From: a virus
IMG/VR virus record: IMGVR_UViG_3300035034_001226
Location: 22,721-86,720 of that record
DNA: 64,000 bases
Direction: 5' to 3' (one strand)
A program made the position numbers and the translations under genes. Shown in pieces: positions 485 to 46,957 of the stretch. The first letter of the stretch is position 1; each line of letters starts with the position of its first letter. Below the pieces are notes generated by a model. That model was not told where the DNA came from. It worked only from the letters and a program-made list of their open reading frames with translations, and searched no databases.

Positions 485-2047
485 CTATCCCACATAAACT
501 GAATAATCTGTGCTAGAATCACCTGATTCCACTTCACCTTCAGCCGTATACCATTCATCACCATCAGCCTGTTCACTAAACTTATACAGCTTCTGATACG
601 CTCTAGGATCGTACTGAGCGATTTCTTCTAGCATCCTAAGCACTATGTATACCGCTGAGATACAATCGTCTGTAGCCCCTGTCTGTGCTTCAAATGTGTC
701 ACCTTTTCGTATATATGACTTCATTTCATTGTACAAAAAGTTAGAATATATAGTCATTTCATTACGTTCAAACATGTTTTTAAACTTTACAGCACAATCC
801 TTTTTAGATGGATTAGTTGTAACATAACCATACTTATTCTTTCCACGCTCTGACATAAAATGTGCATAAGCGGGTGGATCATCATCACGTAAATATAATG
901 CTACCAATGCCCTACCAACACCATTTGATTCAACACTGAAATATACATCATCAGAGTATTGGCTTAAAAATCCTATTATCTTCTTCAAATGTGAATACAA
1001 AAATACTTCATTCACTGAATTTGATCTGAATTCCATTACCTGTTGCATAGTTGGTACCTCAAATACCTGTATGACAGAGTAATCATTACCATTACCAGTT
1101 GATGGGTCAACACCCACCACATACATCATATCCTGTGACAATGGTTTAAAAAATTCTTGTTCATTATTTAATTCGAATGCTGCTGGCATATCACGATATT
1201 TCTTCTGCTCTGCCTGTACAATCCTAGTATCAAATAATGAGTTGTCAGATGATATGAATTCAGTTTCATATTCCTGCAACCATTTACGTTCACCAATTCT
1301 AGATATGGTTTCACGTTTAAATTCTTCATCTCTTCCCGGTGGTTGATCCCAATATATACGTGTTGCCTTGAAACCATTAACATCACTTTCTGCACCTTTC
1401 CATAATGTAGAAAATAAATTAGTATCACCATTAGGTGTTGATGTAATAATACATGAACCACCAGTAGACAATGTAGGATATACTGAATCCCAAAACTCAT
1501 TCTGGATACTTGGTTTTACGAATGCAAGCTCATCACAATATAGCAATGAAATAGCAAGACCTCGACCAGATGAATCTGTTGTTGTTCTAGCTACAATACG
1601 TGATTTATTATCAAATGCAGCAGTGTGTTTGTTCCAATCATCGTCTAATACACCCGGTTTTAACCAAAGTGGTAGTTCCTCATATTCATCTCTTATCTTT
1701 TTTATAATTTCCTTTGCTGCTTCAGAATCCTTAGAAACAACCAATATTGTTTTGTTACTATGAAAAATAGCAAACCACAATAAATATGCACATGATGTTT
1801 CTGTTTTACCTGTCTGTCTAGCAGACAATACGATATTAAAACGATTCTCATTATAATTAGTTACCAATTCTTCTTGATAATCATATAAATCAAACTTAAC
1901 ACTACCCAATTTAGGGTGTGTTACATATACATATTTTCTCATGAAATATATGGGGTCAAGCATACATTTCTTTAATTCTTCAATTTGCTCATAAGTCATT
2001 TCGACTGTAGCATGAGCACTCTTTAAGTTTGGGTTATTACGCCTCAC
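485..2047 (-). CDS. terL: Terminase large subunit (T4 gp17-like)
   Basis: Walker A SARQTGKT, Walker B LLYCDE, ITSTPNG coupling motif, RNase H nuclease VGVDPSTG and DDCISA. Confidence 0.95.
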   Translation of the reverse strand: MRRNNPNLKSAHATVEMTYEQIEELKKCMLDPIYFMRKYVYVTHPKLGSVKFDLYDYQEELVTNYNENRFNIVLSARQTGKTETSCAYLLWFAIFHSNKTILVVSKDSEAAKEIIKKIRDEYEELPLWLKPGVLDDDWNKHTAAFDNKSRIVARTTTDSSGRGLAISLLYCDELAFVKPSIQNEFWDSVYPTLSTGGSCIITSTPNGDTNLFSTLWKGAESDVNGFKATRIYWDQPPGRDEEFKRETISRIGERKWLQEYETEFISSDNSLFDTRIVQAEQKKYRDMPAAFELNNEQEFFKPLSQDMMYVVGVDPSTGNGNDYSVIQVFEVPTMQQVMEFRSNSVNEVFLYSHLKKIIGFLSQYSDDVYFSVESNGVGRALVALYLRDDDPPAYAHFMSERGKNKYGYVTTNPSKKDCAVKFKNMFERNEMTIYSNFLYNEMKSYIRKGDTFEAQTGATDDCISAVYIVLRMLEEIAQYDPRAYQKLYKFSEQADGDEWYTAEGEVESGDSSTDYSVYVG

Positions 2048-2095
2048 AATAAATCTCCTTTAAGAGTATTTATTGTAAATAAAAATTAGTGTCTC

Positions 2096-2659
2096 TTAAA
2101 TCCTTGCATCAGAACCAATACCGTAAACTATATTATCACAATATGGTAATATCATATTAGGTTGATCACCACATGACGATAAAATTGCAGTGCCCATATA
2201 TGGGCCTAATAATATATGCAATAAATCAATAGATTTGGGGTTAACCATATTCAATGAATCCGCAATGAATACATCTATGCTATTATAAACCACAATACGG
2301 TTTATAATATTGGCAGATTTAAATCTAATAATTGATCCATTACTAAATTCGGTTATATTATTCCGATAATTAGTTATGGACACACTATCATACTTCAGGG
2401 TATTATATATGTCACGCATGTGATTCTGTAAACATCTACTCATATCATGTGATGGTTCACACATGACTATAGTTACTTTTGGAGCCATAATTGCTTTCCA
2501 TATAGCGAAGAATGCATTCGTGGTTGATATTCCACATCTACGTGATGTAATAACTTTAGTTGACCCATCACAATATGATTCTAACAATTTACATTGAAAA
2601 TTAGTTAATTCTACCCTATCTCCATTAGGTAAGGCATTACTACCTTCAAAAAATAACAT
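2096..2659 (-). CDS. Degenerate terminase ATPase-domain paralog
   Basis: FQ adenine motif, SRRCGIST (Walker A without Lys), EFSNGSII, DVFIADS (Walker B without Glu); no nuclease domain. Confidence 0.6.
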   Translation of the reverse strand: MLFFEGSNALPNGDRVELTNFQCKLLESYCDGSTKVITSRRCGISTTNAFFAIWKAIMAPKVTIVMCEPSHDMSRCLQNHMRDIYNTLKYDSVSITNYRNNITEFSNGSIIRFKSANIINRIVVYNSIDVFIADSLNMVNPKSIDLLHILLGPYMGTAILSSCGDQPNMILPYCDNIVYGIGSDARI

Positions 2660-22182: not shown

Positions 22183-22818
22183 TTAGACATTAGACATACC
22201 ACCCATACCTGTTACATCATACCAATTTAATTTAATATAACTTACAACAAAATCGAGAACTTGTTGAGAATTATTATCGTCATATTTTTCAACCACAATA
22301 CCAGTATGCCTCGTTATATTTTTAAAATAATGCTTCATCAGATCACTACTAGCATTTACCATATGAAGTATTCTACTAGCATATACATTAAGTGTTGTTT
22401 CTGAAAGTTCTTCTTCAGAAAATCTTTTAAGTAATCTGTACATTTGGACTTTAGGATCAATATCAATATAAAAATTTGATATTTCATAATCATCAAGTTC
22501 AGGGGAGCAATTAATACTATTAACACCTTTAAGGTCTAAGATCACAACTGGAATTTTACCCAAATCCACAATTCTTTCGATTTCGTCTAAGGTGCAACCA
22601 TACCACGATTCATTAAATTCTGATTTCTCAAGCAATACTAGATTATCAAATTTACACTTAGATACAAAATAGTAATCAATGCCATGCATTTCACCTGTTC
22701 GTGTTTCACGAGTGGTGTTGGATATTACCTCTGCGAAGTTTCTAGTATCACATAACTCTTTAGTTAGGGTAGATTTACCACTACAAGTAGGTCCAGAAAT
22801 TGTTAATAATTTTTTCAT
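22183..22818 (-). CDS. gmk: Guanylate kinase-like protein
   Basis: SGPTCSGKST, TTRETRTGEMHGIDYYF, WYG. Confidence 0.85.
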   Translation of the reverse strand: MKKLLTISGPTCSGKSTLTKELCDTRNFAEVISNTTRETRTGEMHGIDYYFVSKCKFDNLVLLEKSEFNESWYGCTLDEIERIVDLGKIPVVILDLKGVNSINCSPELDDYEISNFYIDIDPKVQMYRLLKRFSEEELSETTLNVYASRILHMVNASSDLMKHYFKNITRHTGIVVEKYDDNNSQQVLDFVVSYIKLNWYDVTGMGGMSNV

Positions 22819-39741: not shown

Positions 39742-40362
39742 ATGAGTATTAAAGATAAAACAGTCATTCCAAACAAATATCATTTCTTTTGGGGTGGGAA
39801 TTATTCTCAATGGGTTCCAGCAGAATTTTCATTTCATGATGTAGATTTTAATACGGCTGAACAATTTATGATGTTGGGTAAGGCAATAGTTTCGGAAGAT
39901 TATGAAACTGCTAATAAAATTATGAAAAGTGATGATCCTAGTGTTCAAAAGAAATTGGGTCGATCAGTAAAAAACTTTGATGAATCTAAGTGGGATTTAT
40001 ATAAGTATGAAATTGTATTACTTGGTAATTTTTTAAAATCAACACAAGTTAATGAATATGCTGAACTTGTCCCTATGGATAGTGATGTTGATTTGTTTGT
40101 TGAGGCTAGTCCATATGATAAGGTCTGGGGAATTAAGATGGGTGTGAGTGACCCTGATCATACTGACCCTAAAAAATGGAAGGGTGAAAATCTATTAGGT
40201 TATGTAATAACTGATATTAGGGATTTATTAGTATTTGGCTCAGTAGATTCAAATCTTGATGATATATCCATAATGAGAAAGTTAGATACATGGTCTGAAG
40301 TTATGAGAAAGGGAATCGACAATTGGGTTCACTATAACATAATGAATCCAACTGACATATAA
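39742..40362 (+). CDS. NADAR (YbiA/DUF1768) family protein
   Basis: YSQW, TAEQFMM..KA, QKKLGRSV, VEASPYDKVWGI, GENLLG. Confidence 0.9.
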   Translation: MSIKDKTVIPNKYHFFWGGNYSQWVPAEFSFHDVDFNTAEQFMMLGKAIVSEDYETANKIMKSDDPSVQKKLGRSVKNFDESKWDLYKYEIVLLGNFLKSTQVNEYAELVPMDSDVDLFVEASPYDKVWGIKMGVSDPDHTDPKKWKGENLLGYVITDIRDLLVFGSVDSNLDDISIMRKLDTWSEVMRKGIDNWVHYNIMNPTDI

Positions 40363-44647: not shown

Positions 44648-44911
44648 CTAATGAGTCGATTCTTCAATGATATCTACCATTGTCATTAAACCGTGGGGAT
44701 TATTACCTGCCACTGTCCAAGTACCTTTGATATCATTTAAATTCACTCTACCTGATAACTCATATGTCTTTCCATCATCGTACACAACTTTCATTGTACA
44801 TTTATGGTTATCAATCAGTTTCAAATCTTCAATTTCTACTGATACTGCTTCAATTTCTTTTGTTGGCACTCTTCTCTTGAACCAACTTGTTTTCCTAATC
44901 TCTAATTTCAT
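44648..44911 (-). CDS. Hypothetical protein
   Basis: 87 aa. Confidence 0.55.
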   Translation of the reverse strand: MKLEIRKTSWFKRRVPTKEIEAVSVEIEDLKLIDNHKCTMKVVYDDGKTYELSGRVNLNDIKGTWTVAGNNPHGLMTMVDIIEESTH

Positions 44912-44961: not shown

Positions 44962-46227
44962 TTAATTACTCAATTCAATTAAATGTGAAATTGTGCACTG
45001 CTTACCATCATACACGATGTACTCATTATTACGTAGATCAGCACCACCTTCAGCAAACACACTATCATACCCCTCACGTTTCAAAACGCTCTTAGAGAGA
45101 GAATAACAGTCACGTGTGTGATGTTTAATACGCTTCCACTTACCAGTATGGACTTTAAATAATGCTAGGTATGCAGTATTGTCACTTCCACTCGCCCAAT
45201 ATGATCCACGTAGGGAAGTATATCCAATAGACTTCTGTGCCTTATCAGCAAAGTAGATACCATCACCAAACATAGAGCCAGTATATAAAGCACCCGCTGG
45301 ACGAATCATCAAACCAGTAGAAATAATATTCAACCAGTTTTGATTTCTTGAACCGTGAAAGAAATGTCTTACATGCTTATCATCAACCGATTTCAAATGG
45401 TTATCGAACTTCTTCTCAGTTGCCAAATGCTTTACAGTGAAAACTCTTTTGACTTGACCCTTGTTGCTACCCATCTTACTCACTGCAAAGTCATATTCTT
45501 CAGTTGATGCTGCTTCTATTTCTACACCCAACATTGTTAGAATGTCTTTATGATCAGATTTCACAGTATCATCGGTTTCATCATTAATCAAAACCTGTCC
45601 AGCCATTACATCTAATGTAGCCTGCTCTTCTGCAATTTGACTTTTAATATCATCTAATAATGCCTTATTAATTTTAGCATCCTTTTCAAATATATGATCC
45701 CTAACATCTTTCATTCGGCGTGGAATGATATGATATAGTTCAATCAATTGCTTATTAATATCATCAGTTTTCCTTCTAAGTTTTGCGGCATCTAAGATAC
45801 TATTAACCTTATCTTGGGCCTCATCAATCTGTGCTTGTGTAACTGATTTAGAACTTACTGAATAATTTTCCTGAATAGAGTTATTAGCAAAACGTTGTAA
45901 TATATCCATCAAGGATTTAACTTTACTGTCTTTAATATCTACAATGTTTGATGGTGTACTACTATCAGACTCTGCAAATAAATGGGTAACTTCAGTGTAA
46001 ATACTACCACTTTTACTCTTCTTAGACTTTATAACGGAATCCCATTTTGACATCGGATATTCTTTAATCTGTGGGGCACAATCTACTCTACCATATTCTG
46101 CAATGAATGTTGAATCATCCTGCTCATACATATTGTAGTATTTGTTGCTCTGTGCAGTTTTACCATCATCAATGGAAACACAAATTAACTTACATACTTT
46201 TTTGCCTTCTACTAATAACTCACTCAT
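44962..46227 (-). CDS. PARP-like ADP-ribosyltransferase: WGR, regulatory and catalytic domains
   Basis: NKYY...EYGRV (WGR); LYHIIPR (regulatory); FHGS, GSMFGDGIYFA, KSIGY, NNEYIVY (H-Y-E triad). Confidence 0.9.
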   Translation of the reverse strand: MSELLVEGKKVCKLICVSIDDGKTAQSNKYYNMYEQDDSTFIAEYGRVDCAPQIKEYPMSKWDSVIKSKKSKSGSIYTEVTHLFAESDSSTPSNIVDIKDSKVKSLMDILQRFANNSIQENYSVSSKSVTQAQIDEAQDKVNSILDAAKLRRKTDDINKQLIELYHIIPRRMKDVRDHIFEKDAKINKALLDDIKSQIAEEQATLDVMAGQVLINDETDDTVKSDHKDILTMLGVEIEAASTEEYDFAVSKMGSNKGQVKRVFTVKHLATEKKFDNHLKSVDDKHVRHFFHGSRNQNWLNIISTGLMIRPAGALYTGSMFGDGIYFADKAQKSIGYTSLRGSYWASGSDNTAYLALFKVHTGKWKRIKHHTRDCYSLSKSVLKREGYDSVFAEGGADLRNNEYIVYDGKQCTISHLIELSN

Positions 46228-46230
46228 AAT

Positions 46231-46836
46231 TTATCCCGTTGCTAGGCTGCTTCTGACATTATTATAGTTAACATGGAAAACATCAGCATGTGCCTGACGT
46301 GCCTGACCACGACTAATATCTTGTATAAAAAAGGCCATGTGTCCAGTTGATTGAGAAATTCTAGTTACATCTTCATCTAAACCAAAATCCAATAATTTTT
46401 TATAATCAGTAAACACATAGATATTATAACCTCTAGAATTTGTATATAATTTAGGATAATCAGCTACTGACATATTTTCCATTTTTGATATTTGTGCTCC
46501 TGTTAGTCCATCCCAACCATCACCTATTTCAAGTCCTATCTCACCATCATCATCAAGATCAGGATAATTATGATCAGTAGTAACTGATGCACTTGGTGAA
46601 GCTAATGTATAGATTCGATAATTTCCAGAATGTGGTTCTACTGTAAATTCAAGTGGCAATTCATCTGCGGCTTGTGCCATAAAATGTGAAACTTCATCTT
46701 GGTCAGCCTGATAATTAATTTGACGAAGAAGATTCTTTACTTCTAAAGTCGTAGTATTTGAATTTCGCTCTATTAATAATAGAGTGGCGTACTTTACTGC
46801 TAATGGTGTTAAATTGTTCATATTAAATTTCCTCAA
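46231..46836 (-). CDS. Hypothetical protein co-transcribed upstream of PARP
   Basis: TTTLEVKNLLR N-domain; 3-nt gap to PARP; promoter at 46846-46874. Confidence 0.7.
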   Translation of the reverse strand: MRKFNMNNLTPLAVKYATLLLIERNSNTTTLEVKNLLRQINYQADQDEVSHFMAQAADELPLEFTVEPHSGNYRIYTLASPSASVTTDHNYPDLDDDGEIGLEIGDGWDGLTGAQISKMENMSVADYPKLYTNSRGYNIYVFTDYKKLLDFGLDEDVTRISQSTGHMAFFIQDISRGQARQAHADVFHVNYNNVRSSLATG

Positions 46837-46882
46837 GTTGTAGATATAATACTACATGAATTTAAATATGTCAACTATTTTT

Positions 46883-46957
46883 TGGTGGAGCCAAAGGGAT
46901 TTGAACCCTTATCTTCTACGTGCAAGGCAGGAGTTCTTCCAATTGAACTATGGCCCC
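46883..46957 (-). tRNA. tRNA-Ala (UGC)
   Basis: G3-U70, CTTGCAC loop. Confidence 0.9.

Follow-up and report, generated by a model that had tools for sequence, protein, structure and literature searches.

A PARP gene and its conserved winged-helix companion in a predicted early operon of a T4-like jumbo phage

The DNA analyzed here, referred to as the window, is a stretch of 64,000 nucleotides (positions 22,721 to 86,720 of IMG/VR record IMGVR_UViG_3300035034_001226). The 105-kb record around it is about 30% complete according to CheckV. The window has a G+C content of 35%, carries nearly all of its genes on the minus strand, and contains 38 tRNA genes. T4-type hallmarks are present (Gp23 capsid protein, T4-type terminase, DnaB-like helicase, RNA ligase, CCA-adding enzyme, and ATP-dependent DNA ligase), and the source is therefore a T4-like jumbo phage. 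The sole sequencing run that contains the whole stretch is a lake-water metagenome, possibly the one from which it came; no RNA sequencing run containing it is listed, and no near-identical DNA was found in the phage collection searched.

Two tightly coupled minus-strand genes occupy the locus, as the initial annotation had proposed. The upstream gene, hereafter the partner (46231 to 46821, minus strand), encodes 196 residues plus a stop. The downstream gene (44962 to 46227, minus strand) encodes a PARP of 421 residues plus a stop and begins 3 nt past the partner stop (TAA ATT ATG). The existence of the upstream gene was predicted correctly, its length of 201 residues was not. Homologues start at the position of ATG 46821, which is served by a GAGGAAA ribosome-binding site, giving a protein of 196 residues, and the TTG at 46836 is unlikely to be a start since it lies only 9 nt past the -10 hexamer. 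A sigma70 promoter had also been claimed ahead of the pair. The site in question, TTGACA-17 nt-TATTAT (46846 to 46874, minus strand), scores 11 of 12 against the consensus, is the top match within the 2.8-kb region searched, and sits between tRNA-Ala (46883 to 46957) and the partner start. The two genes form a tight operon, which is read as early and as transcribed by the RNA polymerase of the host.

The 421-residue protein matches the Pfam PARP catalytic domain PF00644 (E 1e-23; 84.3 bits, with the cut-off at 26.7), as do all 40 homologues scanned, and it matches PHROG 23333 with E 4e-55. Three domains follow one another on the minus strand: a WGR domain (approximately residues 8-84; 45976 to 46206), a helical regulatory or PARP_reg-like domain (HD; approximately residues 96-232; 45532 to 45942), and the ART catalytic domain recognized by PF00644 (approximately residues 235-420; 44968 to 45525). 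The Pfam scores of the first two are weak, with WGR reaching 14.4 bits in the window protein, below its cut-off of 22, and PARP_reg matched in only one of 40 family members. The WGR-HD-ART layout is clear despite these scores. Residues 1-421 of the structural model align to PARP1 531-1007, and the family profile aligns along the PARP1 HD, including LyhiIPr against FYTLIPH of PARP1. In the WGR region the family displays the motifs NKFY, (W/Y/F)GRV, and KGY; the second of these reads YGRVD in the window protein (Y45-G46-R47), where G46 and R47 are invariant among the 40 homologues. Model and profile alignment thereby bear out the PARP1/2/3-like C-terminal architecture first suggested for this gene.

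The catalytic residues are equally well preserved. H291 (FHGSR), Y325 (GIYFAD), and E402 (NEYIVY) correspond in alignments to the PARP1/2 triad H-Y-E, which had been reported as intact, while K332, S333, and Y336 align with K903, S904, and Y907 of PARP1, and all six are invariant across the 40 homologues. The WGR, the HD, the PF00644 domain, and the H-Y-E triad that define membership of the PARP clade are thus all present, and the protein is predicted with high confidence to be an active ADP-ribosyltransferase. The triad itself is no proof of chain formation, given that PARP3 possesses it and is mainly a mono-transferase. Moreover, the position of PARP1 Y986, a residue that affects elongation and branching, is occupied in the window family by an invariant asparagine (Asn400; 40 homologues). 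With this substitution, and with no PARG found, the formation of chains and the attachment of single units appear about equally probable.

Non-eukaryotic PARPs have been known for some twenty years, and two bacterial ones make PAR in vitro. Bacterial PARPs have been catalogued (Perina et al., 2014; PMC4245714), and phage PARPs were noted in publications from 2005 and 2014 onward (PMC1266365; PMC4245714; PMC7824862). Annotated examples are found in Aeromonas phage Aeh1, Cellulophaga phage phi4:1, and the Xanthomonas jumbo phages XacN1 and Xoo-sp13. No functional assay of any phage PARP was found in the full-text literature searched, which covers few of the subscription journals. Bacterial PARPs usually contain YGR instead of WGR, with Y or F often replacing the W (PMC5966428), and the enzymes of H. 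aurantiacus and C. difficile (HaPARP and CdPARP) PARylate in vitro only with DNA (PMC8120803; PMC5966428).

Judged by sequence comparison, the window PARP belongs to this known bacterial and phage family, and the description "eukaryote-style" in the initial annotation does not hold. A scan of prokaryote genomes returned 112 PARP loci, the best 80 of which show 35-45% identity to the window protein over the full length and derive mostly from Bacteroidota contigs and chromosomes. Carriers include Saprospiraceae, Cytophagales, Flexithrix dorotheae, Flavilitoribacter nigricans, and a complete Bernardetia chromosome, with a minority of the loci in Firmicutes and Treponema. The family is also abundant in environmental DNA: metagenomes yielded 2652 matches, more than 120 of them full length at 48% identity or above, and 286 PARP-seeded loci were retrieved from IMG/VR.

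The partner matched nothing in Pfam, PHROG, or the PDB sequences. Its AF2 model (pLDDT 87) consists of two folded domains joined by a flexible segment, all encoded on the minus strand. Residues 1-79 (46585 to 46821) adopt a winged-helix (WH) fold with the conserved signature TTTLEVK..LR....A.Q..VS, and define a PARP-associated WH family that is apparently undescribed. A disordered acidic linker follows (approximately residues 80-104; 46510 to 46584), with the sequence DLDDDGEIGLEIGDGWDG and pLDDT values under 50 at residues 82-96. Linker length in relatives ranges from 14 to 81 aa; a D/E run of at least three residues occurs in 19 of 43 relatives, and K/R are nearly absent. The WH domain is likewise net acidic, with a charge of -4 in the window; the phage median is -3 and the bacterial median -1. 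Since this is unusual for a DNA binder, DNA binding is not to be assumed from the fold.

The C-terminal alpha/beta domain (approximately residues 105-196; 46234 to 46509) is modelled with pLDDT 87-97 in the order b-b-a-b-b-a-b and is specific to the window's phage clade. It contains the conserved motifs Y..R.G, W.V, YF, (T/S)RD.VR.AYA, and RA/RS. None of its 43 members matched Pfam, its profile found no counterpart in the PDB, and a word-index protein search with its alignment returned no match; fold searches with the whole partner model gave results filled by the WH domain. A WGR identity was rejected, as hhalign against the family WGR profile gave a probability of 0.4%, equal to that of the controls. 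NFACT-R (PF05670 / PF18297) resembles the low-confidence ESM Atlas model of the partner (pLDDT 0.57) with TM values of 0.5-0.63, a likeness that may be treated only as a lead for the C-terminal domain. Stand-alone small ORFs of this domain lie near the PARP in two IMG/VR phages, and the domain is, as far as the compared homologues indicate, an addition made by the window's phage clade.

Homologues of the partner were collected by exhaustive HMMER search, whereas a word-index search matched only the partner itself. Co-conservation of the two genes had been named beforehand as a test of the initial annotation, and the WH domain proves to be kept beside the PARP in phages and in Bacteroidota. In phages, the partner is adjacent to the PARP in 11 of 85 loci and lies within 1-5 kb in six more. 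It is found immediately upstream of the enzyme, at 39-41% identity, in loci L002-L005, and a WH gene is immediately downstream in locus L057. Within the window's own PARP clade (support 99) all six rows have the partner directly upstream, and the same arrangement occurs in three lineages beyond it. A WH-only form of 105 aa is encoded 7 nt upstream of another PARP. The reverse search agrees: PARP is adjacent or within 3 kb in six of seven partner-seeded loci, one of which has a 385-aa nucleoside-deoxyribosyltransferase-like gene between the two. A locus search with an 11-row partner alignment gave two loci.

The PARP loci that lack the partner fall mostly into one derived phage clade of 56 rows (support 99), which is taken to have lost it. 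Four large records of this clade, including a 100%-complete genome of 362 kb, contain no partner, and the enzyme can therefore function without it. Outside this clade the partner accompanies 19 of 30 rows, and such rows occur on either side of the root when the PARP tree is midpoint-rooted. Neither the Xanthomonas phages nor LR756500/LR756511 showed a WH match within 3-4 kb of the PARP.

A more distant relative was retrieved by a fold search of viral proteins, which returned a protein of 154 aa from Cellulophaga phage phi4:1. In that phage a gene of identical length, gp030, is located directly downstream of the PARP gp031 and is followed by the DNA ligase gp029; the WH profile matches gp030 with E 1e-13. 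Bacteria show the same downstream arrangement: of the 74 loci that could be assessed, 50 encode a WH protein immediately behind the PARP in the same orientation (E 1e-18 to 1e-28). These bacterial partners are mostly about 100 aa long, and about a dozen reach 290-360 aa. Among eight long ones scanned, four carry a Pfam WGR behind the WH domain, constituting WH-WGR fusions. Because it recurs beside the PARP in phages as well as in bacteria, the WH domain is a constant companion of the PARP family, and a functional coupling of the two proteins is strongly suggested. Complex prediction for PARP and partner from two alignments scored 0.00 and carries no weight either way. No publication on the WH-PARP pairing was found in the full-text literature, within the same restricted reach into subscription journals.

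Ligase genes are found near the PARP in relatives. The order in phi4:1 is CCA-adding enzyme, PARP, WH protein, and DNA ligase, and an RNA ligase precedes the PARP in 26 IMG/VR loci, though this company may reflect no more than gene order shared by related phages. With respect to the removal of ADP-ribose, no match to Macro, PARG, ARH, or NAMPT was found in the 105-kb record, itself about 30% complete. A NADAR gene (39742 to 40362, plus strand; E 1e-35) is located 4.6 kb from the PARP. Five related near-complete phage genomes contain NADAR in three cases, Macro in one, and bacterial-type PARG in none, and in two of them NADAR is tens of kb from the PARP. With no PARG or macrodomain in the 105-kb fragment and no PARG in the five genomes, a polymer cycle is not evidently encoded.

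Comparison with characterized systems places the window enzyme closest to the bacterial PARPs, with which it shares a length of about 420-450 aa, the succession of WGR, helical, and ART domains, and the H-Y-E triad. HaPARP and CdPARP, compared here by their published description (the identity figures given above refer to Bacteroidota PARPs), are accompanied by a bacterial-type PARG, whereas none was found with the phage PARP. The window enzyme further differs from the bacterial ones in being phage-borne and placed behind an early promoter. Bacterial WH partners are encoded downstream and are mostly about 100 aa, while the upstream position of the partner and its extra C-terminal domain set the window pair apart from them. 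Among phage enzymes, phi4:1 gp031 is 32% identical to the window PARP over 94% of its length and the Xoo-sp13 PARP 23%. Like the window, phi4:1 has a WH-domain gene adjoining the PARP; however, gp030 lies downstream and its C-terminal half has no sequence match to the window C-terminal domain.

The C-terminal module of human PARP1, together with PARP2 and PARP3, shares H, Y, and E and the K-S-x-x-Y residues of the NAD site with the window PARP at about 20% identity. The phage protein lacks the zinc fingers, the BRCT domain, and the N-terminal tail, and carries Asn where human PARP1 has Y986. Unlike the human enzymes, it has no known HPF1 homologue, its conserved neighbour being the WH protein instead. 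Similar to Alt, ModA, and ModB of T4, the window PARP is a phage-encoded enzyme of the ART fold, predicted to be NAD+-dependent like them; ModA and ModB are produced early, and Alt enters with the virion. The T4 enzymes are mono-transferases of the R-S-E clade without WGR or HD (PMC9503650), and homology to them is limited to the ART fold.

Taken together, these features are consistent with a nucleic-acid end-responsive enzyme and a dedicated companion. The WGR domain of the compact PARP would sense nucleic-acid ends or nicks, and binding would loosen the autoinhibitory helical domain. The H-Y-E ART domain would then use NAD+ to ADP-ribosylate the enzyme itself and proteins close by, probably with chains, whether short or long. 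An end-activated ADP-ribosyltransferase is the natural reading because of the homology to the DNA-dependent HaPARP and CdPARP, and activation of the window PARP by nucleic acid is favoured, if not strongly. The 196-aa partner would most likely bind either the PARP or the nucleic-acid site that the PARP occupies, and act as a regulator or a preferred acceptor. Its flexible acidic linker is a candidate for the stretch that accepts ADP-ribose, and a phage-specific contact would come from the C-terminal domain of this clade. Since ligases accompany the PARP genes of relatives, the setting is presumed to be the DNA or RNA ends that arise in infection, such as replication or recombination intermediates, the breakdown of host DNA, or nuclease damage. 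As a complete chain of events, from early operon and end-activated PARP through ADP-ribosylation of itself and its surroundings to a WH regulator or acceptor in an end-handling setting, this proposal has slightly less than an even chance of being correct.

In a bolder version, non-eukaryotic PARPs would have the WH protein as an obligate accessory subunit, equivalent in function to HPF1 or to the automodification region of PARP1. Docked on the enzyme, the WH protein would either determine which targets are modified or itself be the chief acceptor of ADP-ribose, and the C-terminal domain added in the phage form would tie the pair to a phage-specific nucleic acid or protein. This extension is tentative and rather doubtful.

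The PARP could alternatively serve host take-over or counter-defence in the manner of T4 Alt, ModA, and ModB, with early ADP-ribosylation of host proteins (RNA polymerase, translation factors, or defence proteins) to which the WH protein would direct it, and with ends not the main trigger. Phage PARPs have been proposed to act on host proteins like other phage ARTs (Iyer et al.; PMC7824862). The early host-type promoter, the placement of the PARP gene among small early genes and tRNAs, and an acidic WH domain that would fit a protein-protein adaptor all agree with such a role. However, the PARP and WH pair is chromosomal in many Bacteroidota, where take-over would be senseless; the pair therefore has its own function, one that was borrowed by the phage. 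The WGR and the autoinhibitory HD are also fully retained, which argues for regulated and not constitutive activity. Host take-over is regarded as unlikely.

A further possibility is that the substrate is the nucleic acid itself, ADP-ribose on terminal DNA or RNA phosphates shielding or marking the ends and NADAR acting as the eraser. PARP1-3 reportedly ADP-ribosylate DNA and RNA ends in vitro, an activity said to be the subject of a review, and the window enzyme has the WGR-HD-ART layout of PARP2/3. The ligases and the CCA-adding enzyme nearby, the NADAR gene 4.6 kb off, and the prevalence of NADAR over bacterial-type PARG in the related genomes (three of five against none) point in this direction. 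Yet NADAR is common in phages anyway and is far from the PARP in the two genomes mentioned above, and its known activity is on guanine adducts, not on terminal phosphates. Modification of ends as the principal function is given a low probability.

A toxin-antitoxin-like or NAD+-depleting module, in which a growth-arresting PARP is held by the WH protein as antitoxin or repressor for superinfection exclusion or addiction, would account for the close coupling of an enzyme with the ART fold to a small gene ahead of it and for a WH fold plus second domain that recalls type II antitoxins, and ART toxins with cognate antitoxins such as DarTG are known (PMC9503650), but it is very improbable and is rejected as the main explanation, because the obligate pairing and fixed order of a DarTG-like system are contradicted by PARPs without the partner in the 56-row clade and its complete 362-kb genome, by an order that flips from upstream in the window to downstream in phi4:1 and bacteria with variable spacing and intervening genes, and by an enzyme that keeps its own autoinhibitory HD.

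The end-activated PARP with its WH companion thus remains the preferred reading. Whereas the PARP itself is a further member of a catalogued family, its WH pairing is the part for which no publication was found, and a WH gene that stays beside the PARP both in phages and in a bacterial phylum offers a concrete experimental handle on non-eukaryotic PARPs. A culturable system with the pair (gp031/gp030) exists in Cellulophaga baltica and its phage phi4:1. Should the pair sense nucleic-acid ends, the break-signalling logic of the eukaryotic PARP1-3 would already be at work when phages infect; should it modify host proteins instead, a polymer-forming enzyme would join the phage take-over toolkit.

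At four Bacteroidota loci, L131 (5233-6195), L125 (3511-4470), L144 (5082-6161) and L167 (964-2043), PARP is directly followed by a gene fusing the winged-helix (WH) domain to a WGR domain. The fusion proteins measure ∼320-360 aa, and Pfam WGR scores above the cut-off in three of the four. The fusion is a second WGR protein adjoining a PARP that itself bears WGR. The C-domain of the partner also occurs as a separate small protein, since ORFs of 86-91 aa near PARP in two IMG/VR phages match its profile with E-values of about 1e-7 (L062, 752-1027, and L063, 2311-2571, both on the minus strand). In a single relative, L088, a 385-aa gene (1283-2440, plus strand) separates partner and PARP; its product has a domain resembling nucleoside 2-deoxyribosyltransferase (PF15891, E 5e-10), and by eye its C-terminal half looks Nudix-like.

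Within the derived phage clade whose PARP loci lack the WH partner, here loci L006-L081, other neighbors recur. A conserved protein without a Pfam match follows PARP in 47 loci; it is ∼237 aa long by start-codon ORFs, the longest reaching up to 324 aa. An RNA ligase precedes PARP in 26 loci. Some loci carry HNH-like or GIY-YIG-like insertions right behind PARP, assigned either by visual inspection or from Pfam marks precomputed for the contig.

In the window, the next gene downstream of PARP encodes 87 aa of unknown function (44648-44911, minus strand). It seems to have its own TATAAT-type promoter immediately past the PARP stop (region 44932-44911), and PARP has no terminator-like site behind it. 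A 206-aa NADAR-domain protein (39742-40362, plus strand; Pfam E 1e-35) is encoded 4.6 kb from PARP, on the strand opposite to almost every other gene. NADAR is present in three of five related, near-complete PARP-bearing phage genomes, including G005, where it lies ∼5 kb from PARP.

Phage-type PARP and partner also occur on two contigs, L102 (JBBACR010000001.1, 425 kb) and L161, from public MAGs labeled 'Candidatus Pacearchaeota archaeon' and 'Candidatus Micrarchaeota archaeon'. L102 probably represents a phage genome that was placed in an archaeal bin, because its sequence is identical to that of the IMG/VR jumbo-phage record L026. Cellulophaga phage phi4:1 (L094; KC821632.1, 14919-22025) encodes, in order, a CCA-adding enzyme, PARP, a WH protein, a DNA ligase and a DNA methylase. 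This phage can be cultured, which makes it a system where the PARP-WH pair could be put to the test.
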